Assembly: GCA_036338435.1 (NCBI GenBank)
Contig: JAYZCG010000009.1
Coordinates: forward strand, 7,733 to 71,732
Source of the DNA: Acidobacteriota bacterium
GTDB lineage: Bacteria > Acidobacteriota > UBA6911 > RPQK01 > JADFOI01
Reading direction: 5' to 3'
DNA: 64,000 nt
Position numbers and translations under genes: made by a program. This document shows, piece after piece, positions 2,681-49,938 of the stretch. The notes under the pieces were generated by a model that ran no database searches, was not told where the DNA came from, and was given only the letters and a program-made list of their open reading frames with translations. Positions within the stretch are counted from its first letter, which is position 1; each line of letters begins with the position of its first letter.

Positions 2681-3883
2681 ATGTCGAAATTATCCAACAT
2701 AGGGCCTGGGCTAGTTATTACCGCTGCCTTCATAGGTCCTGGCACTATCACCACATGCACTCTGGCCGGTAGCAACCTAGGCTACACTCTCCTGTGGGTC
2801 TTAATTTTTGCCAGTTTAGCAACCTTTGTTCTACAGGAGATGAGTGGTCGATTGAGCCTTGTGGGAGGTATGGGATTAGGAGAAGCCCTCCATGATGAAC
2901 TGCCCGGTCGAATCGTTCGTCTAATGGGACTCGTCATCGTAATTTGTGCTGTTGGTATCGGCAATGCGGCCTATCAAACGGGAAATTTCCTGGGAGCCTC
3001 CCTTGGCCTGTCAGCCTTAACCGGAACAGGAGTCCAGATGTGGCCTCTAATCGTCGGGACTATTGCATTCGTGCTACTGTGGATTGGCTCCTACAAGACA
3101 CTGGAGCGTGTTTTGTTTGGGTTCGTAATAATGATGAGTGCCTGCTTCGTTCTCACTGCCCTAATCACCCGACCCAACATGAGTCTACTTCTCAAAGGGA
3201 TGTTTCTTCCTCAACTTTCCGAAGATAGTATTTACATTGCTATTGGACTGGTTGGCACTACAATCGTCCCCTACAATTTGTTTCTCTACTCTTCAATTGT
3301 CCGAGAACGTTGGGGCACTGGGACAGATCTCCGAATTGCACGAACAGATCTGATGGTAGCGGTGCTACTGGGAGGGGGAATCTCCATGGCCGTTGTAACA
3401 ACAGCGGCATACGCCTTTTTCCAGAGGGAAATGGGAATCTCCAATGCAGCTGATATGGCGATCCAGCTAGAACCCCTACTGGGCAGTATGGCAAAAACGG
3501 CTATGGCCATAGGACTCTTTGGAGCCGGCATGTCCTCCGCTATAACCGCACCACTGGCCACCGCCTATGCCTTGCAGGGCATGTGCGGCTGGAAAGGGGG
3601 CCTCAAACAGGCACGTTTCCGTTTGATCTGGATTTCCACATTATTAACCGGAGTTGTTTTCTCGTCCATGGGCTTCCAGCCCGTTTCGGCTATTCTCTTT
3701 GCCCAAGTGGCCAACGGCATCATGCTCCCTTTCGTTGCCGTCTTCCTCCTATATGCCGCAAACAGTCGCCGATTGTTAGGTGATCAGGTAAATTCGTGGA
3801 AGGCTAACATGGCAGGAGGGCTGGTCATTGCCATCACTCTAGTGCTAGGGTTCCGTGGAGTAACGAAAATTCTTGATCTCTAG
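2681..3883 (+). CDS. NRAMP-family divalent metal transporter (MntH-like)
   Basis: N-terminal GPGLVITAAFIGPGTITT, LQEMSGRL and GTTIVPYNLFL motifs; about 11 hydrophobic segments. Confidence 0.85.
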   Translation: MSKLSNIGPGLVITAAFIGPGTITTCTLAGSNLGYTLLWVLIFASLATFVLQEMSGRLSLVGGMGLGEALHDELPGRIVRLMGLVIVICAVGIGNAAYQTGNFLGASLGLSALTGTGVQMWPLIVGTIAFVLLWIGSYKTLERVLFGFVIMMSACFVLTALITRPNMSLLLKGMFLPQLSEDSIYIAIGLVGTTIVPYNLFLYSSIVRERWGTGTDLRIARTDLMVAVLLGGGISMAVVTTAAYAFFQREMGISNAADMAIQLEPLLGSMAKTAMAIGLFGAGMSSAITAPLATAYALQGMCGWKGGLKQARFRLIWISTLLTGVVFSSMGFQPVSAILFAQVANGIMLPFVAVFLLYAANSRRLLGDQVNSWKANMAGGLVIAITLVLGFRGVTKILDL

Positions 3884-3913
3884 CCGGGTCAATAGGGCTA
3901 CTCGCAAGAACGG

Positions 3914-4483
3914 CTAGTGCATGTAGAAGAAACAACTGAAAATAGCAGGAGGCGCGTCCGGCAAAACATGTGAAACCTTTAGTACAACATCACCAAACTC
4001 CACCTCTTCAACACGCTCCCCCTCCTTACCAGAGGCCTCTACTCGGTGGGGAAGGACGATATCCTCAGGCGAGATTGAGCCAACATTGAAAGTTATCTCA
4101 GCTATGGGACCATTGGGGAGGGCTTTCCCACCCTGGACTGATAAGTGAAGTATGGAGATATCGCCTTCTGAACTATCCTGGATCTCTGCCTTGACCACCG
4201 CCCCAGCCAGATCTGCTGCAATCCCCGCTCGTGTGCTTAAGTAGGTAAGTTTGGATGTAGGAAATTCTAACCAATGCTCCAGTTGGGACATAGAAACATC
4301 CGGCGCATTCGAAAGTAGGATGGTCACATAAGTCCGTTGTCCAGGCTGTACCGTGGGAGAAGCAAGTACAATGGATGCCCTACCACTTTCCTCTTCTTCC
4401 TGACTCAGCTCTGGCACCTCGTCCTGGGCCCGAACCAGCCCAAAACTAAGTAGCAAGATCGCTACACCAGCAGTCTTGTACAT
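3914..4483 (-). CDS. Secreted cohesin-like beta-sandwich protein with C-terminal CFFYMH tail (copy 1)
   Basis: Sec-type signal peptide (MYKTAGVAILLLSFGLVRA), alternating beta-strand pattern (LEFPTSKLTY, GPIAEITFNV), ends PPAIFSCFFYMH*. The cohesin assignment is by pattern only. Confidence 0.75.
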   Translation of the reverse strand: MYKTAGVAILLLSFGLVRAQDEVPELSQEEEESGRASIVLASPTVQPGQRTYVTILLSNAPDVSMSQLEHWLEFPTSKLTYLSTRAGIAADLAGAVVKAEIQDSSEGDISILHLSVQGGKALPNGPIAEITFNVGSISPEDIVLPHRVEASGKEGERVEEVEFGDVVLKVSHVLPDAPPAIFSCFFYMH

Positions 4484-4610
4484 GACCTACTCCTCACTCT
4501 CAATACTCTCAAAATGCCCAGATCCACTGTCTAAAACTCAAAGTGATTCACGCAGTCGTAAGAGGTTTAAAACCGACCCCTAACTATATCACATTCCCGA
4601 TCAAGGCCCC

Positions 4611-5609
4611 TCAGACCCGAATAAGTCTCTTTATATTCTCCTCATAAATCTTCCCCTTGTCCTCTCCAGAGGCTTCCAGATCCTCCATCGTTTTGATGGT
4701 GTCACCGACAAAGACGTGGCCTCCTTCGGAGTCAAAAGGCATGTCCGAACCAAATAGGACTCGGTCCACACCGAAAAAATCAATTCCACACTCCAGGGCC
4801 GCAACTGAGCCATTGGTAGCTGTATCTGCATAGAACATCTTGAAATAATCATAGGGATGACGTTTGAGTTTACCTAATAGTTCCCGACCGGCATCCGATC
4901 TCTTGCCTACCTTGTTGTATCCCTGGAGAATTCTTCCGTGGGTATAGGGAACTAAACCACCAAGATGATGGGTTATGATCTTCAGAGTGGGATATTTGTC
5001 AAAAAGACCGGCAAAAACTAGTCGAGTCATGGCGGCCGTACTGTCATAAGTCCATCCGAAAATATGCCAGATATCGTATAACGACTCACTCTCAGCTGGA
5101 TAATCAGAGAACTTCCCATTCCGCCCTGGATGTAGCCAGATAGGCAAATCACATTCTGCCATTTTTTTAAAAATGGGCATGAATTCAGGGTCGTCTAAAG
5201 GACGCCCCTTAACATGGGTAAAAAGCTGGATGCCTTTGAGATCCAAATCGTTAATTGCCCTATCTATTTCAATCAGGGCTGCATCGGGATCGTTCATGGG
5301 AATACAGGCCACAGCCCCCACAAAACGATCCGGATATTTGGTAACCAACTCTGCCATTTCATCATTGGCAATGCGAGACATCTCCGCAGCCTCTTCCGGA
5401 TCGGCTATCACTTCCACAGGAGGATTAGCCATGGTCAAAATCTGGACGTAGTCATCGAACATATCCATGACTCTGAACCTCTCTTCAAGATTGATTATAG
5501 CGGGCATTGTCTTAAGCCGTGCCTCTAGACCCATCGAGGGTGGAGCCGCAGCTAAACGTCTTTTGTTAAACTCTGGTGTGAGGATATGGCAGAAAACATC
5601 AATTTTCAC
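4611..5609 (-). CDS. Amidohydrolase_2 family protein (cytoplasmic; nonoxidative decarboxylase/hydrolase class)
   Basis: MKIDVFCHI start, PIWLHP, IITHHLGGLVP and RVLFGSDMPF motifs; no signal peptide. Confidence 0.88.
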   Translation of the reverse strand: MKIDVFCHILTPEFNKRRLAAAPPSMGLEARLKTMPAIINLEERFRVMDMFDDYVQILTMANPPVEVIADPEEAAEMSRIANDEMAELVTKYPDRFVGAVACIPMNDPDAALIEIDRAINDLDLKGIQLFTHVKGRPLDDPEFMPIFKKMAECDLPIWLHPGRNGKFSDYPAESESLYDIWHIFGWTYDSTAAMTRLVFAGLFDKYPTLKIITHHLGGLVPYTHGRILQGYNKVGKRSDAGRELLGKLKRHPYDYFKMFYADTATNGSVAALECGIDFFGVDRVLFGSDMPFDSEGGHVFVGDTIKTMEDLEASGEDKGKIYEENIKRLIRV

Positions 5610-5803: not shown

Positions 5804-6784
5804 ATGAAAACTCAACCGTCGTCCCTTCCCTCCTTCAGCGGAATCATCGGGGCATGTCTGACGCCCTTTCACGAGGATGGTCAGATTAATTATGAGGCGC
5901 TGAAACAAGAAATCGACTTTATTGTCGAAGATGCAGACGCAATCTCCATTGCCGCTGTAGAAGCCGCAGAATACACGATGCTTTCCATCCAAGAACGGAA
6001 AGAGCTCATGAAGATCGCAACCGAGATGGTTGGGAAACGCATTCCGGTTATTCTCGGTGCATCCCATCCCTCTCCAAAGCGAGCTATCGAGCTATCTGAA
6101 TACTGCGCTGATGTGGGTGCCGACATGGTTCAAGTCTTAATGCCGCTCCGTCCTTGGGGAAACCAGCCAACCATGAAGGAATTAATTGATTATTTCACGG
6201 AAATCGCCATGGCTTGTCCCGTTCCCATCATTGCCTATCACAATCCTGGAGCGGGAGCAGATCCCGATATGGAAACAACCATACGCCTAAGTGATATCTT
6301 TAACATCTGTGCCTTCAAGGAAAGCTCTCGCGATATTACTAAAATAACAAGGATGATTGAGGAAATTGAGCTGAGTGGGAACGCCCAGTATTTCACAACC
6401 ATGCAACCACTTTTGATGACCCTGGTTATGGGGGGATCAGGCGCTACCATGCCACCTCCGGGAACCCGCATTGGCGCGAAGGTAGTAAAGGCATTTCGAG
6501 AGGGCGATCAGGAAAAAGCTAAATATTGGCAACGCTTTTACTCCATGTTTCCAGCTAAATGGGGTGCCTATGGACTACCGCCTGTGATGAAATCAGCCTT
6601 AAAACACTTCGACATTGACATGGGAGATCCATCTCCACCTTACAAGCCTGTTGATCCCCGAGACCACGCTCAAATCGGAGAGTTTTTCCGTCAAATTGGC
6701 CTCTTTGATAAAGGAGAACAAACGGAAGTATCCTTCACGGAAGTAGTCTCCAAAATGGGACGGAAAGATACCTTTCTCCGTTAG
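5804..6784 (+). CDS. Dihydrodipicolinate synthase-family (class I aldolase/lyase) protein
   Basis: IIGACLTPFHEDGQINYEAL, IAYHNP (Tyr) and AFKESS (Schiff-base Lys). Confidence 0.85.
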   Translation: MKTQPSSLPSFSGIIGACLTPFHEDGQINYEALKQEIDFIVEDADAISIAAVEAAEYTMLSIQERKELMKIATEMVGKRIPVILGASHPSPKRAIELSEYCADVGADMVQVLMPLRPWGNQPTMKELIDYFTEIAMACPVPIIAYHNPGAGADPDMETTIRLSDIFNICAFKESSRDITKITRMIEEIELSGNAQYFTTMQPLLMTLVMGGSGATMPPPGTRIGAKVVKAFREGDQEKAKYWQRFYSMFPAKWGAYGLPPVMKSALKHFDIDMGDPSPPYKPVDPRDHAQIGEFFRQIGLFDKGEQTEVSFTEVVSKMGRKDTFLR

Positions 6785-6813: not shown

Positions 6814-8199
6814 ATGCTGACAGTATTTTGGAGTATTGGTCTTATTTCGGTGTTCTTTGTCTTCCTGTTTGTGGGCAAAACCAAAGGTCCTTTCGAGCTG
6901 ATTAAACAATGGACGGACACCTGGATTTCTCGATTCTTGAGGTCAACCTCACACTTTGGCCAGGAACTCACTAAAGAAAGCCTTGCAGATCAAAGATGGT
7001 TGCGAAGAATACGTCTGCGGGATTTGCACTATCACGCTCCCACAATTATTACCCACCCTCGCCACAGAATCGTAGTATTAGGAGGGGGAAGCGGTGGCTT
7101 GGTCGCTGCTACTCAGCTAGCTCGAACACTCGGAACAGATCATGAGGTCATCCTGATTGATCGGCGTCCTGACCATGTCTTTATGCCAGCTTTTCTCTTC
7201 CTAATGGTAGGTCAACGACGTCCTCAGGATATCACTCGCAAACTGAAACGCCTTGAACGACACAACGTCAAAGTTGTCCAAGCTGAGATCGAAGGTATTG
7301 ATCCACAACGTCAAGAGATTATGCTGGACACAGATTCGCTTCACTACGACCATCTCATCATTTCTCTTGGGATGCAAACTGCCCCCGAGCTACTTACCGG
7401 ATTCACTGAAGCAGCTGAGCATAGTTGGGAGTTAGATGCCACTGTCAGTCTGCAGAAAACATTGCAATCCTTTGAAAAGGGACGCATTCTTGTTGGAGTC
7501 CCATCTGGTCCCTACCGGTGTCCACCTGCCCCCTACGAGGCTCAGTGGATGCTGGATAGTTATTTCAATGAGCGGGGCATTCGAGAAAAGATCAAAATTG
7601 AATTTTTTACAACCAGTCCTGAGCCAACAGGAGAAGAACGCACCCCTGCCGTGTGGATGGATGCACAAAGCAAAAAGCGGGGAATCAGGCAACACTACTC
7701 ATTCACTGCCCAATCGATTGATGCCGAACAACGAACCGTCAAGGGCCTTTATGGAGTTGAACTGCCCTACGACCTCCTGTTTATGGTTCCGCCTCACAAC
7801 CCAGCTCAAGCACTGGTCGACAGTGGGTTGGCAGAAACAAGAAACGGCATCCGCGTTGACTACGATACCATGGCAACACGCTGGAACAATGTTTACGCAA
7901 TTGGAGACTGTGCCGATATGCCAGTTTCCAAATCGGGCGGAGTAGCACACCAACAAGCCGAGCTGGTAGCCCATAATCTGATGGTTGAGCTAACCGGAGG
8001 AGGAGAACCCAAAACTTTACACTTACATGTTTTGTGACTACTTGCTTATGGCGCGGGCCGCGCCGCTGCTAATCGGACCATCTATCCTGCCAGCTGGCCC
8101 CCCTTTGGTTCGCCTGAGAGCCGTACTTGGGGCCCCTCTAGACTAATCTATGGAGCCAAGGTTGGTTTTGAAAAATGGTGGTTGTGGCGTTATTTTTGA
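6814..8199 (+). CDS. Sulfide:quinone oxidoreductase-like FAD-dependent oxidoreductase; candidate selenoprotein (in-frame TGA at 8035-8037)
   Basis: GGGSGG FAD motif, YRCPPAPYE and YAIGDCA. The ORF track stops at 8037, but the frame continues open for 53 codons (LLAYGAGRAA...GAKVGFEKWWLWRYF*) to TGA 8197-8199, supplying the typical SQR C-terminus. The family call is strong; readthrough is inferred. Confidence 0.75.
8050..8064 (+). promoter_or_regulatory. SECIS-like hairpin downstream of the in-frame UGA
   Basis: GGCGCG-GGC-CGCGCC perfect 6-bp stem starting 12 nt after the UGA, with a G-first apical loop. Confidence 0.5.
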
Positions 8200-8211
8200 G
8201 GAAATTAAGTA

Positions 8212-9720
8212 ATGAAAAGTACAAAAAATCAAACTCAGCACAATACTGTTACAGATCCGTCTAATGAGCAGACTATCCAGCTAGATTTGCGGGATTGGAT
8301 AGAGGAAATCAGAGAGCTAGGGAAATTAAAGGAAATACCAAGAGCCTCATGGGACCTGGAGATAGGCATTTTAACTGATCTCAATGTTAAATCCCATAAA
8401 TGGACACTCCTGTTTGATGAAATTGAAGATTATCCTGCCGGATATCGACTTCTGACGGGTTGTTGTCTCGACGCAAGTCGGGTTGCCCTGACCCTTGGTT
8501 TGTCTCCAAAATTAAATGATCTACAACTGGTCGAGGCATTGCGTCCCAAGCTGGATAAGATTGACTCCAACATCGGTCAGTTTCCTTTCATAGAGGTTTC
8601 GGATGCTCCGTTCCTGCAAAACCGCCAAGTAGGATCAGCAATTGACCTCGAGGCATTACCGGCCATGAGGTGGCATGAAAAGGATGGGGGACGCTATCTG
8701 GGCACCGTTGATGCGGTCGTCACTCGTGATCCAGATTCCGATTGGATTAATGTCGGAACCTATCGGATGATGATCCACGACAAACAACACCTGGGAACAC
8801 ATATCAATGTGTCTCACCACGCACGCCTGCATGCAGAAAAGTATTGGTCCCGTGGAGAAGACTGTCCAATAGCTATTTCTCTAGGTCAGCATCCTCTCAT
8901 TTCGCTTCTGGCTGGAATGGAAATACCTGTAGGAGTTTGTGAATATGATTACGCTGGCAGTCTATTATTGAGTCAATATCCGGTTGTGAAAGGACCCATC
9001 ACCAATCTACCTATCCCAGCAGATAGCGAGATTGTAGTGGAAGGATATCTCACTCAGGAATTAAGGAAAGAAGGGCCCTTCGGGGAATTTATGGGCTACT
9101 ATGCAGGAGGCACCATTGAAAATCCAGTGATCAGAGTAGAAGCGGTTTATTTTCGGGACAACCCCATCATCCTAGGCACAGCCGGTGGGCGACCTCCATA
9201 CGATTACTCGTATTATCGCTGCCCTCTCCGGTCAGCAATGCTTTGGAATGCTTTGGAAAAATCTGGAGTATCTGGAATAAAAGGGGTCTGGTGTCACGAA
9301 GCTGGCTATTCTCGTGCTCTTAACGTTTTGGCGCTGGAACAAGCCTACATGGGACATGCCGAGCAAGTTGGACATCTCGCTTCCCAGCTTCCGGAAGGTG
9401 TTTTCGGAGGCAAGTACGTAGTGGTGGTAGACTCGGACATCGATCCTTCCGACACCGACCAGGTGCTATGGGCGATTTGTTCCAGAACCGACCCAGCTGA
9501 AAATATTGAATTCATTCGTAATTCGTGGGGGATGAATCTAGATCCGATGGTCAAGATAGAACATGACAGCCAGCTTGGAGAGCTCCGAATGTCCCGAGCC
9601 ATCATCAACGCCTGCAAACCCTTCGACCGATTCATACGCGGGGACTTTCCCGAGGTCGTGGATCCTCCTGTCGAAATGAAGGATAAAATCCTGGCTAAAT
9701 GGGAGGACATCCTCGCTTAA
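8212..9720 (+). CDS. UbiD-family (prFMN-dependent) decarboxylase
   Basis: GGRYLGT, NVGTYRMM, EGPFGEFMGYY, VVVDSDIDP and LWAICSRTDP motifs. Confidence 0.92.
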   Translation: MKSTKNQTQHNTVTDPSNEQTIQLDLRDWIEEIRELGKLKEIPRASWDLEIGILTDLNVKSHKWTLLFDEIEDYPAGYRLLTGCCLDASRVALTLGLSPKLNDLQLVEALRPKLDKIDSNIGQFPFIEVSDAPFLQNRQVGSAIDLEALPAMRWHEKDGGRYLGTVDAVVTRDPDSDWINVGTYRMMIHDKQHLGTHINVSHHARLHAEKYWSRGEDCPIAISLGQHPLISLLAGMEIPVGVCEYDYAGSLLLSQYPVVKGPITNLPIPADSEIVVEGYLTQELRKEGPFGEFMGYYAGGTIENPVIRVEAVYFRDNPIILGTAGGRPPYDYSYYRCPLRSAMLWNALEKSGVSGIKGVWCHEAGYSRALNVLALEQAYMGHAEQVGHLASQLPEGVFGGKYVVVVDSDIDPSDTDQVLWAICSRTDPAENIEFIRNSWGMNLDPMVKIEHDSQLGELRMSRAIINACKPFDRFIRGDFPEVVDPPVEMKDKILAKWEDILA

Positions 9721-10568: not shown

Positions 10569-12332
10569 CTAACCGTAGTTTGGATACTCCACTTTTTGAT
10601 TGGGATCCTTGTCAGGGTTGATATAAACAAACTTGCCCCCGATCATGGTCATCAAAACTGGAATGTCCCTGATCTTTTCCTTGGGCACCGTCAATATATC
10701 TTGCCCTAATACTACTAGGTCGGCTAACTTTCCAGTCTCTATAGAACCTTTAACATCTTCCTCAAAAGATGCATAAGCAGGGACAATAGTGCAAGCGCGG
10801 ATAGCCTCCTCTAAAGTCATACGCTCCTCTGGCTGAATGACCTTTCCTGATTTTCTAAACCGATTCACAGAAGCCCAAATAGTGTTGAGCGGTCCGATAG
10901 GTTTTTGATCCGTTCCCGTCATGACTTTAATTCCGCTATCCAAGTACGTTCTGGTGGGAATTGGTCCGTATCTTCCCGGCTCTACCTGGTTCTCCAAATC
11001 GTCGCTGGCGCGTAACAAACTACTCGTTTGAGGTTCCACCAACACATCATACTTCTTAAGAACCTCAATGTTTTCCCTGGAGGGATAACGAGCATGAGTT
11101 ATAACATGGCGAGCATCCTCACGTGGAAATTCTCGGTATGCCTCCTCCAGCGACTCGGTCACCACATCGAAGGATTCACCTCCACCAAGGTGAATGAACA
11201 TCTGCCAACCCGATTTGTGAGCAGCCTTGATGATAGCTTTCACCTTGTCCGGAGGAACACGCATTCCAGAACCATCCACGCTAATTTTTAGAGTCCCAAC
11301 CCGCAAGGAATCATTGCGAAATTCTGGAGCAAATAGAAAGCTGTCCAAAAAGGCCAGGTTCTGTTCTAGGGTTTCCACCCTAATGGGCATACGGATCATC
11401 GCATTGATTCGAACCGTCAATTTACCCTGTCGACTGAGACGCTGGTAGGCTTGCAGACCCGGCTGGTTGTCCATGGCCTTACCTATGTTGGTGCAGGGAT
11501 CATATAAACTGGTAAGTCCCTGCTTTACAACCGCTTTCGATCCTCTCAAGATATTTTCTTCCAGTACCTCAGTAGGATACAAATTAAAGGGTCCACGGGC
11601 TAATGTAGTCGCTCCTTTTTCCCTCAAAACCCCAGTTGGCTCACCAGTCTCAGGATCCTTCACAATCTCCCCTGCGAAGCCTCTCTCAGTAGGTTGAGGA
11701 GTATCCTTGGTGATGGTACCTACCATGTCTATTAATTTACTGTTTACAATCGTAGTATGATCCGCCCCAAAACCTAGAATAACAGGGTTATCCGGCGATA
11801 CCGGATCTAAATCATATCGTGTAGGCCATCGCTTTTCAGCGAGTTCGCTGGAACTTCGCACTCCACGAGAAAACCAAACAATCTCTCCGGGGGGTGTTTG
11901 TTCCACCTTCATTTGTAGTGCTTTTCTAACTGCCTCAATGGAACGTGCTTCACTAAACATGTCCTCGTAACGATCACTTGTCTTGCCCACCTTGTGGGCA
12001 AAGTGAACGTGGGGATCATTAAAGCCTGGGAGCACCGTACGACCCTCTAGATCAATCTCCTCTGTATTAGGTCCGATCAGTGCTTTGATGTCAGCATTGG
12101 TCCCAACAGCAATGAACCTGCCATCCTTAATGGCTACTGCTTCAGCAATACTGAATTCTTCATCGACAGTGACAATTTTGCCATTAAACAAAACCTTGTC
12201 AGGTTTCAGTGCATCCAGAGGATCAGCCGTAGCACCTATGACCGTGAAAATGCCAGGATGTAAGGCATTCAATCCTAATACGGCCACCAACAACAAACCG
12301 AACAACGCCGAATTTCTTGCAGACTTTTTCAT
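10569..12332 (-). CDS. Exported YtcJ-like metal-dependent amidohydrolase (Amidohydro_3), paralog A
   Basis: Start ATG 12332 with GGAAGGAG RBS; signal peptide. Motifs PGFNDPHVH, GTLKISVDG, MFIH, VITHA, GTDQKP and GSIETGKLADLVVL. Confidence 0.9.
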   Translation of the reverse strand: MKKSARNSALFGLLLVAVLGLNALHPGIFTVIGATADPLDALKPDKVLFNGKIVTVDEEFSIAEAVAIKDGRFIAVGTNADIKALIGPNTEEIDLEGRTVLPGFNDPHVHFAHKVGKTSDRYEDMFSEARSIEAVRKALQMKVEQTPPGEIVWFSRGVRSSSELAEKRWPTRYDLDPVSPDNPVILGFGADHTTIVNSKLIDMVGTITKDTPQPTERGFAGEIVKDPETGEPTGVLREKGATTLARGPFNLYPTEVLEENILRGSKAVVKQGLTSLYDPCTNIGKAMDNQPGLQAYQRLSRQGKLTVRINAMIRMPIRVETLEQNLAFLDSFLFAPEFRNDSLRVGTLKISVDGSGMRVPPDKVKAIIKAAHKSGWQMFIHLGGGESFDVVTESLEEAYREFPREDARHVITHARYPSRENIEVLKKYDVLVEPQTSSLLRASDDLENQVEPGRYGPIPTRTYLDSGIKVMTGTDQKPIGPLNTIWASVNRFRKSGKVIQPEERMTLEEAIRACTIVPAYASFEEDVKGSIETGKLADLVVLGQDILTVPKEKIRDIPVLMTMIGGKFVYINPDKDPNQKVEYPNYG

Positions 12333-12628
12333 GCTTATCTCCTTCCCTCCGTGACAACGTTCCCACATCTTGTGGCGGTGTGCAAGGTAATAGTCTCATC
12401 GTCCATTACCTTGTCTCCCCATAGTACTCAGCAATCCGGACACCTATGATATCCATTAAAGCAAAAGTACATTCGCACATCGGGCAGGATGGATTATTCC
12501 CCCCGACGGGCACATGCCCTCCAATCCATGTTGTTCATGCATTAGACCAGCAATTTTATTGATATCTAGCCGGTGAAATGCATGTGCGGATCAAAGCTGG
12601 ATTCAACAAAAATGCGGCCACACACGAG

Positions 12629-17907: not shown

Positions 17908-19662
17908 CTAAAATGCCCCCTCGACCTCATAAACAACCTTGCCATCCACGACGGTCATCAAGATTCGGAGTCGCTCAAGATCACTTTCTGGAAAAGTCAT
18001 ATAGTCTCCTGCAAGCACGACTAGATCAGCCAATTTACCGGGTTCGATTGAGCCCAGAATGTCCTCCTCCCCGCTATAAGCGGCGGCCCAAAGAGTGTAC
18101 ATATAAAGGGCCTCTTCCCTACTGACTTTCTCTTCCGGATCTAGCTGACGACCCTTTTGGTCAATGCGCCTCACCCAGTTTTGGATATTAAATAAGGGGA
18201 AAGCGGTGCGGTGAGTGAATGCATCCGCTTCTGCGGCCGGCCTGATGCCAGCTTCGATCAAAGACTTGACCGGTTGCATCTTGTACACTGCATCCATGCC
18301 ATACATTGTGACCAAAGCATCATTACCGTACATGGCTTTTGAATAAACGCTCGGAATAATATCCATTTCTTTGAGCTGTGCGTAGTGCTCTGGCTGCAAC
18401 ATTAGACCGTGATCAATGCTAAAATGGCGCCCTACTAAAGATTTTTCTTTGTGTGCTTCCTCAAAGACTTCAAGCATGAGGGTGTTGCTCATATCACCAC
18501 TACTATGGAGTGAAGAGACCGTCCAACCATAACGATTAGCCAAAATAATGCTTTGCCGGTCACTAGTAGCCAAATCACCGCTTTCTTCCCACTTGTTCAT
18601 TCCAAAAGGTCCGTAAGGATCCTCCGGCAGGAGCGTAGTCTTGGCCTTAGAAGTGTTAGCAGACCCATTGTTGGAGGTTCCATCGACAACCTGTACTGAC
18701 GTCCCGATTATTTTGAACCAGTCATTGCCAACATCAGTCAGGTTGCCTAATCTTTTTAAATAGGCCTCCGGATATCCATTTTGGCGCAGAAAATGGTGTG
18801 CTACCCGCACCCTCATCGTTAGCTCCCGATGCATCATCAGTTCCCGAAATACTGTAACCTCCAGGCCTCCAGCTCGCCCCATCAAGGTAGTTAATCCCAT
18901 CTCATTGTGACGACGGAAAGATGCCTTCTGCGGCTCCAGCAAAGACTCGACTTCCGGCCAAGGTTCTAGTTCGAATCCAGGAATTCCAGCGGCCGCGCCC
19001 CTGAGGTGTCCCGTCAAATCTCCGTTGTCATCTAGAACAATGCCTGCAACATCCTTGGGAATTCTGTCTAAGACTAGACTATTAGCTACCACCTGGTCAT
19101 TCATCGCCTCAATATAGAGAGGATTATTTGGAGCAACTTCATCCAAAAGATTCACGTTTAATTCATGGTTAACTACCGGATTGCTAGGCCCAGACAACGC
19201 TAAGAACTCTCCTGGCTGAGCTTCCTTGACTAACGTTCGTAGACCCTCTAAAGCACTCTCCAGAGTATCCCAATCAATGTCGTCATCGCTAAATGGAACC
19301 GCCATACTTCGATCTCGGGCCGGGCGCGTAACCCACGCTGAGTGCAAATGAGTGTCTATAAACCCCGGCACGACACTGCGCCCCTCTAGGTCTATCCTTT
19401 GGGTCTCTGGACCCGCCATGGCCAAAACCCTTTGGGTGGTTCCCACAGCCAGAAACTTGCCGTCTCGGATCGCCACCGCTTGGGCAATGGTAAATTGCTC
19501 GTCAGCAGTTATAACCTTGCCGTTATAAAAGACTGCGTCGGCATAAGCGACCACCTCCGCAGGCAGGGTACCGGCGCTTTGCCCCAATCCTGTCTGGGTC
19601 ATAGACAACAAAACTACTGCCATCCCACAGCAACGAAAATAACTCTTACAAATTCGAATCAT
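17908..19662 (-). CDS. Exported YtcJ-like amidohydrolase, paralog B
   Basis: Signal peptide; PGFIDTHLH, SSLHSSGD, SIDHG, AAEAD and GSIEPGKLADLVVL. Confidence 0.9.
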   Translation of the reverse strand: MIRICKSYFRCCGMAVVLLSMTQTGLGQSAGTLPAEVVAYADAVFYNGKVITADEQFTIAQAVAIRDGKFLAVGTTQRVLAMAGPETQRIDLEGRSVVPGFIDTHLHSAWVTRPARDRSMAVPFSDDDIDWDTLESALEGLRTLVKEAQPGEFLALSGPSNPVVNHELNVNLLDEVAPNNPLYIEAMNDQVVANSLVLDRIPKDVAGIVLDDNGDLTGHLRGAAAGIPGFELEPWPEVESLLEPQKASFRRHNEMGLTTLMGRAGGLEVTVFRELMMHRELTMRVRVAHHFLRQNGYPEAYLKRLGNLTDVGNDWFKIIGTSVQVVDGTSNNGSANTSKAKTTLLPEDPYGPFGMNKWEESGDLATSDRQSIILANRYGWTVSSLHSSGDMSNTLMLEVFEEAHKEKSLVGRHFSIDHGLMLQPEHYAQLKEMDIIPSVYSKAMYGNDALVTMYGMDAVYKMQPVKSLIEAGIRPAAEADAFTHRTAFPLFNIQNWVRRIDQKGRQLDPEEKVSREEALYMYTLWAAAYSGEEDILGSIEPGKLADLVVLAGDYMTFPESDLERLRILMTVVDGKVVYEVEGAF

Positions 19663-19691: not shown

Positions 19692-21701
19692 CTAGTCCAT
19701 AAGGGCTGCTTCCCTTTTTCCCTCTACTGTGAAGGCTTCACCAATTTCAGCAATTTCACTGTCTTCAAAGCTGTAGTGGGGACCTACCGGTGCGGTTTCC
19801 CATTCACTTGCCAAAGTCTCATTTAACACGATGACCTTTCCCCCCACCATAGTCATGAGCGGTCGAATCTTGAGAAGATCATCAACGGGAACAGTAAAAT
19901 AGTCTCGATCCATAACCATAAAATCTGCCCATTTCCCCGTCTCAAGGGTGCCAAGCTCATCCTCCTTCATGATGTAGCGAGAGGCCCAAGCGGTCCACAT
20001 CTTCAAAGCATGTACCCGATCAATCCGTTCCTCGGGTTGCCACACTCTCCCATCATATTTCCGGGTAATAGCTTGCCACAACATAAAGAAAGGTGGCTGG
20101 CGCTGCCCACGTCTCACAGTACCTTCGCCTCCTCCTCCTTTGAAAGCACCGCCGCCGTAGTGCTGTCCCACCAGATTTACTCCAGATTCGATCCAAGTCC
20201 TAAATGGAATGAAAAAGTCCTCAATGTTATCAGTGTAGGGACCATAATCCTTGATCCATGAACGCATCACACTCACGTAGTCGGGACCGCAACTAAGGAT
20301 GAGCCCATACCTCTTAATCTTGTCAATTACATCGGGCTGTTTCCCAATCAAATCACAATGCTCTAAGGCAAAGTGCTGATCATGAATGTCCTGCACCGAC
20401 ATACCTGTTAGTTCTCTAGCCTCATCGACCATCTCAATGAATCTTCTCAGACTTTCGCTGCCACAGGTATGTACTCCCTTAATCCTCCAGCCTGCCCTAA
20501 TTGCATTAACCAAAGTGTCCCAATGCAAATCCCCCTTTTGGGGACATGTCTCACGGGCCTTCAGGTGAGCCGGGGCATTGGTATCTGGTCCCAGACAGGA
20601 CTCTGGGAAGTGTGAATCCCATCGCTCTGAGGCCACACCATCAAACCAGAAATAGTCATTGCCAATCCCCTGCAAAACGCCGGTACGCCGATACAATTGT
20701 CGGGTCTCCTGGGGATCGGTCGGCATCCGGTGCACTTCGTAATGTGCGTTGAACCGGATTGGCATTTGTCCCATCTCGGCTAGTCTGGCATATCCGGTCA
20801 TCACTTTGGGAAACTGTACTCGACTTGAAAACGTTGTAACTCCTAAGGAGGCCCACGCCTCAGACTCCAGTTTTAGCATCTGAGCCAACGTATTGGGCTC
20901 CAGACCCTCCAGAAAGAGTTCCCAGGTGATCACCGACATTTCTTGACTCCCGACCCATCCGATATCCGGGATGTCTTCGCCAATCACATCGCCATGCATT
21001 GTCTCTTGGATAGAGGCAGAATAACCGGGCAGGAAATCATTGATAACCTCCAAACCTTTGGAGTTAATAAACCCTCGATTCCCAGGTCGCACCAGGATGG
21101 GATTATCAGGAGCCCACTGATCCAATGCACGGCGATTAGTCAAAACCCGTGTAGCTCCCCAAACACCTATCTGTTTAGGATCAGACGGATGACCATCAAC
21201 CGCAACCATGAGCCATTTACCGGGTTCCATGTTTGCCACGGCTTCTTGAATTCCATCTCGGAGAGCACCTTGAGTTCTCTCCAGATCCAACTCTGCCTCA
21301 ACTGTCACCTCCTCAGCCGGATACTCGTACCCAAAACGGTCTAACCAACGCAACGACCTTCCATAAATATGCTGGTGGGTCTCAATAATGCCCGGAATCA
21401 AGGTGCGTCCATTCAGGTCCAACACCTGGGTTCTGCGGCCAGCCAAAGAACGAATTTCCTCGTTAGTACCTAGCTTCATGATGGAATCACCTTTAACAGC
21501 TACAGCCTCATAGACATTGCCCACTTCAGCCGAAGCTGACTTGTCATCCATACTAACAACCTTACCCCCAACAAAGATCGTGTCGGCATAGCCCATGATC
21601 TCTACCTCGGGTGGCAGTTGCTGTGAGTACAAGAAAAATCCAGGCAAAAAAACGATGAGCACTGTGGCCCAAAACTTACATTTAGCAGTGTTGATTTTCA
21701 T
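19692..21701 (-). CDS. Exported YtcJ-like amidohydrolase, paralog C (divergent active site)
   Basis: Signal peptide; PGIIETHQH, KGVHTCG, ALEHCD and GTLETGKWADF; GQHYG where paralogs have GTD/EAD. Confidence 0.85.
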   Translation of the reverse strand: MKINTAKCKFWATVLIVFLPGFFLYSQQLPPEVEIMGYADTIFVGGKVVSMDDKSASAEVGNVYEAVAVKGDSIMKLGTNEEIRSLAGRRTQVLDLNGRTLIPGIIETHQHIYGRSLRWLDRFGYEYPAEEVTVEAELDLERTQGALRDGIQEAVANMEPGKWLMVAVDGHPSDPKQIGVWGATRVLTNRRALDQWAPDNPILVRPGNRGFINSKGLEVINDFLPGYSASIQETMHGDVIGEDIPDIGWVGSQEMSVITWELFLEGLEPNTLAQMLKLESEAWASLGVTTFSSRVQFPKVMTGYARLAEMGQMPIRFNAHYEVHRMPTDPQETRQLYRRTGVLQGIGNDYFWFDGVASERWDSHFPESCLGPDTNAPAHLKARETCPQKGDLHWDTLVNAIRAGWRIKGVHTCGSESLRRFIEMVDEARELTGMSVQDIHDQHFALEHCDLIGKQPDVIDKIKRYGLILSCGPDYVSVMRSWIKDYGPYTDNIEDFFIPFRTWIESGVNLVGQHYGGGAFKGGGGEGTVRRGQRQPPFFMLWQAITRKYDGRVWQPEERIDRVHALKMWTAWASRYIMKEDELGTLETGKWADFMVMDRDYFTVPVDDLLKIRPLMTMVGGKVIVLNETLASEWETAPVGPHYSFEDSEIAEIGEAFTVEGKREAALMD

Positions 21702-26416: not shown

Positions 26417-28126
26417 TTATTCAGATCTGCCGGAGTGAGTAGCCCCCCACTGGGCTCTTAGGGATTTCAATGTGTCCTTTTCCCCGACAGTAACCCTGGT
26501 ATTCTTTAACTTCTCCTCCAGCCGACCATACTCACTAGCAGCAGCAAGCTGTGCTTCTTCATCCAAATCGTCCGGCCACAACCCCATCGTATAACCATAC
26601 CAAGGCTCTCGAGGTGTCAGCTCAGGAAGCCCCAATTCTTCCCAAATTGTCCTAGCCTGCTCCATGTATTCTTTTTTTGGAAGGGAGAGGGGAGGAAAGT
26701 CCGCCTTACGAGTTGCATCGATCAGGAGGGAAGACTCCTGATGATCGTAGTAACTGGTAGGATGATTTGCCACCATGCCAATCGGAGTTGCTCCAAAGGG
26801 CCTATCTCCTACGATTTCGGTATCCTTGTGGGGCTGGGAACGATGAGTAATAGACCAAATAACCGCCAAAGGGTCGGCCGGATTAACATCTTCGTCCACG
26901 GCAACGATAAGTTTTCCCACTCTATCTCCATACTCCAACACTGCATGCATGGCTTCCCTTGGATCTTGTCGGGTCTTCTTCTTCATTCGTAGAACCACAT
27001 AGGGACGCAGATTGACCAGTGGTTCCGTCAGGGAAACTTCTAAAACACTAGAGAAACCACGATTATGAAGGTAGCGGTGTATGAGAGTCGACATACCCAT
27101 GGCCTTTATCTTGGAACTCTCACTCGGAGTGACCTGACTTATAATCGAAACCCAGATGGGGTTCTTTCTATGGGTCACACAGCTGAGCTCGAAGACTGGA
27201 CTAAGAGTTCGCGGATCGACTACCCCCATCGATTCTCCAAAAGGGCCCTCCTCTTCTAAGTAAGTAGTGGGAATAACCCCCTCGAAAACGATTTCGGAGG
27301 TGGCTGGAACCTCCAAATCAACAGTCTGACACTTAACCAACTGAACGGGTTCACCCACTAATCCACCCGCTAGACTCATTTCATCCATGGAATGAGGTAC
27401 CTTTTGGCAAGCTGCATAGGAGACCGAAGGGACGGTTCCGACGGCCACTGCAACTTCAAGAGGCTTGCCCATTTTCCGACACTTTTCCCAGTGCTGGGAG
27501 AGATCTTGGGGCGTACCGATCATGAGCCCACTCAGACCGGGACCACGGATTAAACCTCGGTAATTGCCCATGTTTCTTGCTCCTGTTTCGGGATCCTTGG
27601 TAATCCAATGTCCAGCGGTGATGTAAGGTCCATTATCAAAACCAGGAGTGGAAATAGGGATGGGAAACTCGTTGAAACCGCCGTGACTGAGGAGATCTGG
27701 GCCACTATGAATCTCTTCCGTGGCCGGACCATCCCTAACGATCTCAGGCTCTATGGGGCTGTCCAAAGCACTCTTCCATCGATCAGCCATTTCTTCAGGC
27801 TTACATTGGACTCCTAAACAGTAGATGTCAGCTGATCCTGCCAGTCCACCCACCAAAACAGAACCCTTGTACTTTCTTTTTTGGGAATCTGTGACATTCT
27901 CAAAAAGAAAAGCCTTCCGATCCTCCTCCTCTAACCCTCTAAACTGCCATCGGACCAGGGGTTGAAGTTCTGTGTCTTTGTTAATCTCTCGATCAATACG
28001 GAAAAGTTTGTCCTTGTCTTCGAGTGCCTGAACAAATTCCCGTAGATCTTGGTAATAAGTCTTATTTGATTTCATAATAGTCAGGATGTTTTCACCCACC
28101 TCAGTTGGCAAGTAGAACGTTTTCAC
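26417..28126 (-). CDS. UbiD-family decarboxylase (second, divergent)
   Basis: DLREFVQALE, RNMGNYR, EEGPFGES, VAVDEDVNP and LLIDAT. Confidence 0.9.
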   Translation of the reverse strand: MKTFYLPTEVGENILTIMKSNKTYYQDLREFVQALEDKDKLFRIDREINKDTELQPLVRWQFRGLEEEDRKAFLFENVTDSQKRKYKGSVLVGGLAGSADIYCLGVQCKPEEMADRWKSALDSPIEPEIVRDGPATEEIHSGPDLLSHGGFNEFPIPISTPGFDNGPYITAGHWITKDPETGARNMGNYRGLIRGPGLSGLMIGTPQDLSQHWEKCRKMGKPLEVAVAVGTVPSVSYAACQKVPHSMDEMSLAGGLVGEPVQLVKCQTVDLEVPATSEIVFEGVIPTTYLEEEGPFGESMGVVDPRTLSPVFELSCVTHRKNPIWVSIISQVTPSESSKIKAMGMSTLIHRYLHNRGFSSVLEVSLTEPLVNLRPYVVLRMKKKTRQDPREAMHAVLEYGDRVGKLIVAVDEDVNPADPLAVIWSITHRSQPHKDTEIVGDRPFGATPIGMVANHPTSYYDHQESSLLIDATRKADFPPLSLPKKEYMEQARTIWEELGLPELTPREPWYGYTMGLWPDDLDEEAQLAAASEYGRLEEKLKNTRVTVGEKDTLKSLRAQWGATHSGRSE

Positions 28127-28267: not shown

Positions 28268-30007
28268 TTAAAATGCACCAACAGCTTCATGGACCACTTC
28301 TCCACCTACTATGGTCATAAGAACACGGAGCTTGTCTAAATCCTCCTCAGGAAAAGTCAAATAATCACCTCCTAGGACCACAAGATCGGCTAGCTTGCCC
28401 GGCTCGATGGAACCCAGAATGTCCTCCTCCCCGCTGTAAGCGGCGGCCCAAAGAGTGTACATGTAAAGGGCCTCTTCCCGACTGGCTTTCTCATCAGGAT
28501 CCATCTGGCGGCCTTTGTCATCCTTCCGGGTTATCCACCTTTGCATGTTGTAAAGAGGTGCTGCGTAACGACCACGGGTGTCGGCTTCTGCCGCTGGCCT
28601 GAGGCCTGCCTCTATCAGGGACTTGACCGGCTGCATCTTGTAGACCGCATCCATTCCATACATATGAATTAACTTGTCGTTGTTAAAGAGAGCTTTAGAG
28701 TAGAGACTAGGAATGACGTCCATCGCTTTGATTTTTTCGTAGTGTTCAGGCTTCAGCATCATACCGTGATCGATTCCAAAATGGCGACCGACCAAAGACC
28801 TCTCTCTATGTGCTTCTTCAAAGACCTCCAGCAATAGAGTGTTGCTCAAATCACCGCTACTGTGTAGCGAGGAAACCGACCACCCATAACGATTAGCCAA
28901 TAGGATGCTTTGGCGGTCACTAGTAGCTAAATCACCGCTTTCTTCCCACTTGTTCATGCCGAAAGGTCCATAAGGATCTCCTGGAACCATGTTAATTTTG
29001 GCTTGAGAAGTTGCAGCTGAACCGTTCCCGGCAGTGCCATCCACCACTTGAACTGAGGTCCCAATGATTTTGAACATGTCATTCCCGACGTCAGTTAGGT
29101 TGCCTAGCCTCTTCAGGTAGGCCTCAGCGAATCCATTCTGGCGCAAAAAGTGGTGAGCCACACGGACTCTCATGGTTAGTTCATCCCGCGTCATCAGGTC
29201 CCTAAAGACCGACACCGACAAACCGCCCGATCGCCCCATTAAAGTGGTCAATCCCATCTCATTGTGGAGTAGAAAGGTATTTTTTTGAGCTTCCAACAAA
29301 GATTCTACTTCCGGCCACGGCGCTAGTTCGAATGTTGGAACCCCAGCAGCAGCTCCTCTTAGTTGGCCTGTCATCTGACCTCTAGCGTCTCTTTCAATGC
29401 CGGGGGTATCGACTGGAACTCGTTTTAAAACAAGGCTGTTTGCTGCAATCTGATCATTTGAAGCTTCGATCCAAAGCATATTCTTGGGAGCAATTTCATC
29501 GAGGAGAGTAACGTTTAACTCTTGTGTCACTACGTCGTTGCTTGGGCCGCTGAGGGCAATGACCTCACCAGGTTGGGCGGCTTGCACACGGGTCCGTAAT
29601 CCCTCAAGGGCTCCCTCAAGAGTTTCGTAATTGATCTCCGGTCCATCATTAGCCCTAGCCCCTGGGGGGCGAACCACCCAGGCAGAATGTAGATGGGTAT
29701 CTATAAATCCGGGCACCACGCTTCGTCCCTCGAGATCAATGCTCCGAGTCTTGGGACCTGCCATAGCTCTAATCCTGGTACTACCTCCCGAAGCCAAAAT
29801 TTTTCCGTCTCTAATAGCGACGGCCTCGACAATCGTGAACTGCTCGTCGGCTGTCAAAATCATGCCATTGTAAAAGACTATATCGGCATACGCGATGACC
29901 TCGTCAGGAAGGTCTTGGACATTCTGAGCCTGTAGAGTACACACACACAATATGGACAACAGTGAGAGCAAAAAAAGACGATTCATTCTCATAACGAATT
30001 CCTCCAA
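28268..30007 (-). CDS. Exported YtcJ-like amidohydrolase, paralog D (close duplicate of B)
   Basis: Signal peptide; PGFIDTHLH, SSLHSSGD, GIDHG and AAEAD; long stretches identical to 17908-19662. Confidence 0.9.
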   Translation of the reverse strand: MEEFVMRMNRLFLLSLLSILCVCTLQAQNVQDLPDEVIAYADIVFYNGMILTADEQFTIVEAVAIRDGKILASGGSTRIRAMAGPKTRSIDLEGRSVVPGFIDTHLHSAWVVRPPGARANDGPEINYETLEGALEGLRTRVQAAQPGEVIALSGPSNDVVTQELNVTLLDEIAPKNMLWIEASNDQIAANSLVLKRVPVDTPGIERDARGQMTGQLRGAAAGVPTFELAPWPEVESLLEAQKNTFLLHNEMGLTTLMGRSGGLSVSVFRDLMTRDELTMRVRVAHHFLRQNGFAEAYLKRLGNLTDVGNDMFKIIGTSVQVVDGTAGNGSAATSQAKINMVPGDPYGPFGMNKWEESGDLATSDRQSILLANRYGWSVSSLHSSGDLSNTLLLEVFEEAHRERSLVGRHFGIDHGMMLKPEHYEKIKAMDVIPSLYSKALFNNDKLIHMYGMDAVYKMQPVKSLIEAGLRPAAEADTRGRYAAPLYNMQRWITRKDDKGRQMDPDEKASREEALYMYTLWAAAYSGEEDILGSIEPGKLADLVVLGGDYLTFPEEDLDKLRVLMTIVGGEVVHEAVGAF

Positions 30008-34353: not shown

Positions 34354-34356
34354 ATG

Positions 34357-34851
34357 TCAGCCTTTTTTGTACTCCTTACCCGCAGCTGTCACAGCCTTGA
34401 TTATTTGAGTATAACCCGTACACATACATAGGTTTCCTGCGAGTCCTTGCCTAATTTCCTTCTCGCTGGCATTAGGATTTTTGGTTAACAGATGGTGTCC
34501 GGCCAAAACCATTCCCGATGTGCAATAGCCGCATTGAAGAGCATAGTGCTCAACAAAGGCCTCCTGAATCGGATGAAGTGTCCCCTCAGTTGCTAAGCCC
34601 TCAACAGTAACAATTTCTTTCTCGTGAACCCGCACAGCCAGAACCAGACATGACTTCACCAACTGCCCCTCAAGAAGTACAGAACAAGCACCACATTCTC
34701 CGACAATACACCCGATATGCGTTCCGGTAAGGCCCACCTGCTCACGAAGGAAAAAAGACAACAACATTCTTGGATCAACTTCTTCACGGTAGCGTTGTCC
34801 ATTGATTGTCACACAAACTAGTTGCTTCATTCGGGGAGACTGTAGCTCCAC
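34357..34851 (-). CDS. 2x[2Fe-2S] small subunit (CoxS-like)
   Basis: [20 protein letters not shown] and NLCMCTGY. Confidence 0.95.
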
Positions 34852-34961
34852 TTGCCCCCAGTGTCAATGCACCACAATTCATAGGCTTAAATAGCACGCC
34901 TCCAACAAGCTCCGTTACGTTGACTTGTCAAGCACTCGTGTCATACACTTGCCCGCTAGCG

Positions 34962-49716: not shown

Positions 49717-49820
49717 GAACTTATCAAGAGTGGCGAAGGGAACGGGCCCGTAGATGCCACAGCAACCAGCCTAAAAGAGCGTGGTGCTAATTCCCGCAGG
49801 GTGTTCTGGGAGATAAGTTC
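49717..49820 (+). promoter_or_regulatory. SAM-I (S-box) riboswitch
   Basis: P1 GAACTTATC...GATAAGTTC with core ATCAAGAG, GAAGGGA, GGCCC, GCAACC and GTGCTAATTCC matching the S-box consensus. Confidence 0.93.
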
Positions 49821-49837
49821 GATGTCGAAAAACATCG

Positions 49838-49871
49838 AAGCCCTTTCTTACCAGGAAGGGCTTTTGTTTTT
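49838..49871 (+). terminator. Intrinsic terminator of the riboswitch expression platform
   Basis: AAGCCCTTTC-TTACCA-GGAAGGGCTT stem (one G-U pair) followed by TTGTTTTT, between the aptamer and ATG 49939. Confidence 0.8.
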
Positions 49872-49938
49872 ATGGGCTCACGTTCTATCGAGTTCTGGCT
49901 TCGGCCAGAGGGACGTTTTGCCGGAAAGAATACGGAGT

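Follow-up and report, generated by a model that had tools for sequence, protein, structure and literature searches.

A gene at positions 6814–8199 (forward strand) of a 64,000-nucleotide stretch of Acidobacteriota bacterium DNA (assembly GCA_036338435.1, contig JAYZCG010000009.1; hereafter, the window) very probably encodes a selenoprotein, in which an in-frame TGA (8035–8037) would be read as selenocysteine (Sec) under the direction of a selenocysteine insertion sequence (SECIS) lying downstream. The predicted product is a flavoprotein resembling the sulfide:quinone oxidoreductases (SQRs), and the TGA occupies the position of their second redox-active cysteine (Cys). We favor this reading because the TGA is fixed among relatives, the coding tail and a hairpin beyond it are conserved, the synonymous sites of the hairpin stem are constrained, and related proteins carry Cys at the same column.

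The called open reading frame (ORF; 6814–8037, +) comprises 407 residues, ends in LHLHVL, and is closed by the TGA at 8035–8037. Reading on past this TGA adds 53 in-frame codons (8038–8196, +; LLAYGAGRAAANRTIYPASWPPFGSPESRTWGPSRLIYGAKVGFEKWWLWRYF), which would be translated only after recoding and are conserved in frame in all loci, followed by a stop codon, TGA in the window (8197–8199, +), whose identity varies among relatives and which we take as the true terminus. The full recoded coding sequence (6814–8199, +) would thus hold 461 codons, the 408th of them for Sec, and end with the terminal TGA. Translation to 8199 confirmed the open frame beyond the TGA that had been reported in an initial annotation of this DNA, and the end of the frame was also placed correctly there, with the terminal stop sitting 12 nt 5′ of the ATG (8212) of a UbiD-family gene and overlapped by a GAGGA sequence (8198–8202). 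The encoded protein carries a flavin adenine dinucleotide (FAD) binding motif, GGGSGG (residues 90–95; 7081–7098, +), of which G90, G91, G92, G94, and G95 are invariant in a 25-sequence alignment, and a similarly invariant Cys236 (codon TGT; 7519–7521, +) within YRCPPAPYE, the putative first redox cysteine. Sec408 would lie in the motif H-V-L-U, and the last 14 residues (AKVGFEKWWLWRYF; 8155–8196, +), which form a conserved motif, are probably a membrane-binding amphipathic helix. TGA is the ordinary stop of 12 of the 43 long ORFs in the window, which excludes an alternative genetic code with TGA as a sense codon.

The flavoprotein and the conservation of its internal TGA

With Cys placed at codon 408, the window protein matched the Pfam families PF07992 (Pyr_redox_2; 72 bits, cutoff 26), from residue 85 onwards, and PF21706 (FCSD_central; 37.5 bits, cutoff 27). 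Its best sequence matches in the PDB were human SQOR (3e-32), then flavocytochrome-c sulfide dehydrogenase (FCSD), and then the SQRs of Aquifex, Acidithiobacillus, and Acidianus. Human SQOR holds its catalytic trisulfide between Cys201 and Cys379. In the alignment, Cys236 of the window protein stands opposite the Cys of VKCAGAP (chain position 161), which we take to be Cys201 of the precursor, and codon 408 stands opposite the second Cys, in YTSCPLVTG, presumably Cys379. The alignment therefore upholds two proposals of the initial annotation, namely that YRCPPAPYE contains a redox Cys and that the TGA marks the position of the second one; the latter is supported as well by the Cys found there in a full-length homologue (P0020) and in most outgroups. 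An AlphaFold model of P0020 had a predicted template-modeling score (pTM) of 0.69, and SQRs ranked first when it was used in a PDB fold search (TM 0.65–0.68). A helix is predicted at residues 367–384 of this model, although residues 330–385 have a per-residue confidence (pLDDT) of <40 and an alignment only two sequences deep, and active-site geometry is not readable from the model. The C-terminal motif K..FEKWWLWRYF is conserved across the clade, and K..FEK.WL.RWF is kept in the Cys outgroups. The best explanation of the window gene, as judged from its sequence, is a membrane-associated FAD flavoprotein of 461 residues belonging to the SQR/FCSD superfamily. Homology at 23–32% identity suggests that it probably couples quinone reduction to the oxidation of sulfide or of another sulfur or selenium species related to it; classical SQR activity in the strict sense is plausible, with our judgment leaning slightly away from it.

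A homologue search covering 5.8 billion proteins returned 2456 homologues. In the best 120 of these (63–99% identity; lengths of 407, 386, or 329–331 residues), the query was covered up to residue 407, and the only full-length exceptions were two proteins bearing Cys and Asn, respectively; the initial annotation had rightly anticipated that automated annotation would report a truncated protein. In the alignment of 25 homologues, 23 end at the TGA column. One of the remaining two is P0020, which is full-length with Cys (LHTI-C-LLAFEPGKAAANR, ending FEKWWLWRYF) and whose source locus (L081) has TGC at the Sec column; full-length relatives at 35–39% identity likewise mostly have Cys there, so that an alternation of TGA and Cys, suggested earlier as a check, is indeed seen. 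The other is P0024 (NCBI; 383 residues, 60% identity), full-length with Asn at the Sec/Cys column and with Thr where Tyr otherwise precedes the first Cys (GPTRCPPALYE); it may be a paralogue with altered catalysis. A word-indexed protein search with the 58-residue tail gave no match, reflecting a limitation of the index.

At the DNA level, a scan of one genome per species yielded 80 loci, with source labels of metagenome-assembled genomes (MAGs) spanning Acidobacteriota, Binatia, Thermodesulfobacteriota/'delta proteobacterium'/Syntrophobacter, Chloroflexota, Verrucomicrobiia, and Eisenbacteria. Of these loci, 77 reach the TGA column, and every one of the 77 has TGA at that column and 53 conserved in-frame codons after it, ending in FEKWWLWR[YF]F. 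Their terminal stop, 54 codons after the internal TGA, is TAG in 33 loci, TAA in 23, and TGA in 21. Metagenomes were scanned separately with a DNA pattern that demanded the hairpin and permitted TGA, TGC, or TGT alike, which gave at least 120 matches; among the matches listed, all 80 loci carry TGA, and the tail, complete in 79 of them, ends at codon 54 in every such case. TGA and hairpin are also kept in a near-identical strain that was assembled independently (Logan SRR28397287, locus L082; 98% DNA identity), which differs from the window at five positions within the tail, all of them synonymous. By codon position, the entropy of the tail (0.36/0.26/1.23 bits) matches the profile of the 50 codons upstream (0.48/0.30/1.33 bits), indicating that the tail is under protein-coding selection. 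In a single locus (L029, ~7072–7360; MAG MFD09730.bin.4.339), the frame shifts ~20 codons ahead of the Sec codon, with TGA, hairpin, and tail kept in the new frame, as a result of either misassembly or very recent pseudogenization.

The SECIS-like hairpin and its synonymous sites

The SECIS-like hairpin (8049–8065, +) pairs nucleotides 8049–8054 with 8060–8065 (one U-G pair followed by five G-C/C-G pairs) and presents an invariant GG (8056–8057) in its loop; the core, GGCGCG-GGC-CGCGCC (8050–8064), lies 12 nt 3′ of the TGA. Across the 77–78 sequences compared, and with the T of the TGA numbered 0, the family stem has six pairs (C14-G15-G16-C17-G18-C19 with G25-C26-G27-C28-C29-G30), begins 11 nt after the UGA, and closes the loop N20-G21-G22-N23-C24 with its invariant GG. 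Two features are specific to the window, a T at position 14 that makes the U-G pair and a G at position 20 that adds a pair (G8055-C8059) and shrinks the loop to GGC. The initial description of a hairpin starting 12 nt after the UGA with a G-first loop is accordingly accurate for the window, whereas the 12-nt spacing and the GGC triloop do not extend to the family.

The hairpin falls within every quoted limit of the bacterial SECIS (bSECIS) model of Zhang and Gladyshev, as restated in PMC13188914. The apical loop is 3–5 nt (GGC in the window, NGGNC in the family; 3–9 nt required), the upper stem is 6–7 bp (seven in the window including the U-G pair, six in the family; 4–16 bp required), and the G required in the first two loop positions is present as a GG starting at the first or second of them. 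The distance from the UGA to the loop is 17–18 nt (18 in the window, 17 in the family; 16–37 nt required), and the minimum free energy is −8.9 to −15.3 kcal/mol (−11.0 in the window, family median −11.4; ≤ −7.5 required). These values, the conservation of the hairpin, and the frozen synonymous sites of its stem bear out the general bacterial SECIS layout that had been proposed.

Pairing of the stem is seen in 99.3% of cells, compared with 15–62% when the 3′ arm is slid by 1–3 columns. At the four wobble positions within the stem, we counted C 297 times, T 10 times, and G once (307/308 pyrimidine), C and T being exactly the bases able to pair with G. At 13 other nearby wobble positions, 470 pyrimidines stand against 531 purines (470/1001), and the Gly, Ala, and Arg codons located in the loop or outside the stem make use of all four third bases. 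Fisher tests gave p-values of 5e-14 to 4e-23 per codon family and 1.5e-81 overall, which ignore shared ancestry and so overstate the significance, though the contrast lies within the same sequences. The SECIS appears to have been built upon the GC-rich, self-complementary codons of a pre-existing G-x-G-[RK]-A motif. A correlation between loop positions 20 and 23 (C..G/T..A) was set aside, being confounded by genomic GC content.

In the Cys form (L081), FEPGK replaces [YF]GAGR and the family GC hairpin is absent. A different predicted hairpin (CCUUGC...GCAAGG, with an 11-nt loop) occurs just after the TGC of this locus (1431–1500), a single sequence in which it may be due to chance. Searches of Rfam gave no SECIS or tRNA-Sec match, either for the window at the gathering threshold or for 7980–8220 at E ≤ 10, the matches obtained being an S-adenosylmethionine (SAM) riboswitch, a tRNA-Met, and one chance match.

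Probable recoding to selenocysteine and its alternatives

Sec as the inserted residue, the SelB-dependent mechanism, and the substrate are what we infer, as follows. By the established bacterial mechanism, the UGA at 8035–8037 would escape release factor 2, with SelB-GTP-Sec-tRNA(Sec) tethered to the GC-rich hairpin (8049–8065) that starts 11–12 nt downstream and the invariant loop guanines (8056–8057) presented to SelB. Translation would then proceed through 53 codons, completing the active-site strand (ULLAYGAGRAA) and adding the amphipathic helix at the C-terminus. Cys236 (of CPPAPYE) and Sec408 would form a redox pair beside the flavin, as Cys201 and Cys379 do in human SQOR, and the substrate would most likely be sulfide or else a persulfide, thiol, or selenide related to it, with electrons passing via FAD to quinone.

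In an alternative reading, the UGA would be recoded to Cys or another standard residue, by a SelC*-type tRNA(ReC) that uses SelB and the SECIS or by near-cognate read-through. Support for this comes from a 2026 paper that found tRNA(ReC)-like genes, with SECIS-dependent insertion of Cys at UGA, in 13–17% of surveyed genomes, including Desulfobacterota. We nevertheless consider such recoding improbable. A plain TGC or TGT would be cheaper if Cys were inserted, yet TGA is found in 157/157 hairpin-bearing loci (for the metagenome part, among the matches listed); according to the same paper, tRNA(ReC) occurs alongside the canonical SelC and does not replace it; and near-cognate read-through would yield Trp or Arg where the alignment column calls for a catalytic Cys.

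A genuine stop is what all gene callers and databases annotate, and would imply that the 407-residue product is functional and that the downstream 159 nt are a conserved untranslated or regulatory element, or a separate peptide, with a hairpin that could in principle serve as an attenuator or terminator-like structure. The tail, however, shows protein-coding conservation in frame with the ORF: it varies at third positions, and the changes between strains are all synonymous. It corresponds by homology to the C-terminal part of the full-length Cys relatives, and has neither a start codon nor a ribosome-binding site of its own. The gene downstream of the tail varies between loci, and the truncated product would be without one of its two catalytic residues and without its membrane helix; a genuine stop is in our view very unlikely. 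Still less credible, to the point of being negligible, is a recent nonsense mutation (a pseudogene) or a sequencing or assembly error that turned TGC or TGT into TGA in the window. One base change would be enough to produce it, and one Cys form does exist, but this account is refuted by the TGA in 77 species-level genomes of six phyla, in 80 metagenome contigs, and in the independent near-identical assembly, with the downstream frame intact everywhere. The initial annotation had raised the prospect of close relatives that all carry Cys with no TGA and no hairpin; the 77 genome loci have TGA, tail, and hairpin without exception.

Several observations weigh against Sec insertion in an SQR-like enzyme. 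Neither the Sec machinery genes selA, selB, and selD nor a tRNA-Sec was found in the 64 kb window, in agreement with the initial annotation, or in the flanks of 60 related loci, and ARAGORN likewise reported no tRNA-Sec in the window or in the 60 loci. A scan of the window for same-frame ORF pairs joined by TGA found no second selenoprotein gene. The predicted fold of 8030–8100 is no better than that of dinucleotide shuffles (z = +0.97); what raises the hairpin above chance is that TGA, tail, and hairpin recur together in relatives. Double-sided covariation in the stem was absent among the 77–78 sequences. The codon layout in fact permits none, since the stem bases that vary all fall at codon third positions and are partnered by an unvarying G at a first or second codon position; the informative test is therefore that of the synonymous sites. 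The G-x-G-[RK]-A motif is also kept at the protein level in the Cys outgroups, and the protein thus accounts for some of the GC richness here. As to function, SQR activity is argued from homology, at the 23–32% identity given above, and the conserved DHDPS-family, cyclase, and haem-oxygenase-like neighbors (see below) suggest that the physiological substrate may be another one.

Apart from the flavoprotein gene, the window has one long same-frame TGA junction (31936–34863, −), which is an ordinary adjacent pair encoding a CoxS-like 2Fe-2S subunit (34357–34851) and a CoxL-like molybdopterin subunit (31936–34353). When extended to 80 loci, the scan recovered only the SQR family, the remaining clusters being off-frame artefacts or adjacent genes. 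Sec users have been reported in Acidobacteriota, Chloroflexota, and Desulfobacterota, and in Syntrophobacter; from these reports of Sec use in the same phyla, and from the gene itself, the source organism would be expected to have the Sec trait. Beyond the reading of the TGA as Sec, the gene may belong to a distinct flavoenzyme clade with an obligate need for selenium, rather than being one more Sec variant of a sulfide-detoxifying SQR. This clade would act within a conserved cassette that also comprises a DHDPS-type aldolase, an arylformamidase-like cyclase, a haem-oxygenase-like/CADD-PqqC-type di-iron enzyme, and a small membrane partner protein (fused to the flavoenzyme in Acidobacteriota), and would catalyze a quinone-linked oxidation not yet described, in Binatia and other uncultured bacteria of soil and sediment. 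We hold this wider proposal to be tentative and rather doubtful; its basis is that TGA is fixed in >150 lineages of six or more phyla and that Cys forms are very rare.

Genomic setting and relation to known systems

Directly upstream of the flavoprotein gene lies a DHDPS-family (class I aldolase-like) gene (5804–6784, +; Pfam DHDPS, 4e-37), a conserved operon partner that is present at this position in 72–73 of 78 loci with 64–79% identity. Most Binatia and 'delta' loci carry, further upstream, genes for an arylformamidase-like cyclase (PF04199; 57 loci) and a haem-oxygenase-like protein of the CADD-PqqC type (PF14518; 54 loci), as at 3452–4192 and 4125–4862 of locus L006, with equivalents in ~55 loci. 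The cyclase, haem-oxygenase-like, and DHDPS-family proteins, the last including that of the window, all score below the cutoffs of every specific NCBIfam model, and the upstream cassette does not look like one for sulfide detoxification. The downstream UbiD-family gene (8212–9720; TIGR00148) was rejected as a functional partner, as it follows the flavoprotein gene only in the closest relatives (L026 and L082).

The flavoprotein begins with an N-terminal module of ~82 residues (6814–7059, +), composed of a hydrophobic helix and FGQELT..DQRWLRRIRLRDLH (ending RLRDLH), which had no Pfam or NCBIfam match and which most relatives encode separately, in a small upstream ORF. In Binatia and 'delta' loci (e.g., L014, L016, L022, and L053), the homologue is an ORF of its own, of the form MEWIKDLSDKL..WFL..TSGFGKELT..EQ.LWREQRLRNLKGL or EQ.LWREQRLRNL. 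The module is fused in the window and in L003, L005, and L013, and a shorter N-terminal module is fused in L001, L002, and L004; the fusion is a trait of the Acidobacteriota-type clade that includes the window. In Binatia loci, a possible further conserved TGA, dividing the N-terminal module from the Rossmann domain, was considered and rejected, since the intervening stops are TAA, TAG, and TGA in different frames, as expected of a separate gene.

Elsewhere in the window, five Amidohydro_3 paralogues lie within 32 kb (10569–12368, 17908–19662, 19692–21701, 28268–30007, and 30139–31863, all −), together with two UbiD-family decarboxylase genes (8212–9720, +; 26417–28126, −), and an Amidohydro_2 gene (4611–5609) adjoins the DHDPS-family gene. 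The genes of this cluster may form a catabolic island that acts on aromatic or heterocyclic compounds. The called GTG start (49801) of a gene for a pyridoxal phosphate-dependent (PALP) enzyme (49801–51201) falls within a SAM riboswitch (49718–49819, +; 79 bits), and the true start of this gene is therefore probably further downstream. An aspartate kinase gene follows the PALP gene, and a homoserine dehydrogenase gene is nearby.

The window protein shares its FAD Rossmann motif and both active-site Cys columns with human SQOR (6OI5, 6MO6, and 8DHK) and with the SQRs of Aquifex (3HYV) and Acidithiobacillus ferrooxidans (3T2Y/3SZ0); with the bacterial SQRs, the C-terminal helix motif is matched as well, in an alignment spanning residues 85–459. 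It differs from the human and bacterial enzymes in its overall sequence (23–26% identity), in the selenium that would replace sulfur at the second redox residue, and in its fused N-terminal transmembrane module. The second cysteine of human SQOR is the carrier of the outgoing persulfide, and a natural Cys/Sec pair at these positions would offer a test of what selenium buys in persulfide/trisulfide chemistry, with P0020 as the Cys comparison. P0020 (locus L081, on a JGI metagenome contig) is 64% identical to the window protein and has a core of the same length and the same tail (ending AKVGFEKWWLWRYF), but it has a cytochrome c gene downstream and no DHDPS gene called in its short upstream stretch.

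The archetype of bacterial SECIS elements is that of E. coli fdhF, whose minimal form has 11 nt between the UGA and the stem. Like the bacterial consensus, the hairpin of the window and its family lies immediately downstream of the UGA and within the coding region; it is unlike the consensus in its very short, perfectly GC-paired stem without a bulged U, and in a lower stem that is weakly supported (89% paired). As a SECIS set on conserved G-x-G-R/K-A codons, it would provide an unusually clean case in which synonymous sites reveal constraint at the RNA level. Among the metagenome matches listed, the hairpin signature retrieved only TGA genes, and it could be used to find and fix mis-annotations.

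Such mis-annotation is uniform among the public entries of the clade that we compared (407, 386, and 329–331 residues; NCBI, JGI, ENA, and Logan), all of which end at the Sec codon, and each would therefore be without a catalytic residue and the membrane helix; in NCBI, these entries are named "NAD(P)/FAD-dependent oxidoreductase". The nearest curated model is NF049943, "type III SQR, selenoprotein subtype", which has the motif HxxU and credits deep-Sep (PMC12013277, 2025), a study that predicted a Sec-SQR in Desulfosediminicola ganghwensis and D. flagellatus (supplement sequence SDGHAV-U-FIESGFGKAY). The suggestion of the initial annotation that a Cys/Sec pair is unusual for SQR-like proteins needs amending, as one had already been predicted in this model and study. 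Apart from these, a full-text literature search found no paper that links selenocysteine with SQR, and a broader search on selenoproteins in Binatia and Acidobacteriota gave no description of the window clade. Although NF049943 remains the best NCBIfam match, the window protein (with C at residue 408) scored 246.7 bits and P0020 scored 248.4 bits against a cutoff of 525, so the NCBI pipeline would not give the window protein this name. With the model not reaching the clade, hundreds of genomes would under-report a selenoprotein and a selenium trait.

The Desulfosediminicola protein and the window protein, both known as computational predictions, are members of the same superfamily and have Sec at the same alignment column, 45 residues after [IL]GD in each, with HxxU represented in one column by H-V-L-U in the window, H-T-I-U in its relatives, and H-A-V-U in Desulfosediminicola. 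Both also lack the ~13 residues that are inserted ahead of 'SK.G.VAH' in most Cys relatives. The two are only 32% identical, however, and the peptide following Sec differs (ULLAYGAGRAA in the window, UFIESGFGKAY in Desulfosediminicola), so that their SECIS elements are presumably different. The window protein ends in FEKWWLWRYF, whereas the Desulfosediminicola protein has a longer tail, and the window clade occurs in different taxa (Binatia, Acidobacteriota, and others) with a conserved DHDPS-family partner. The Sec-SQR as a kind was thus described in 2025, and the sequence comparisons place the window protein in a separate, widespread, and uniformly mis-annotated clade.

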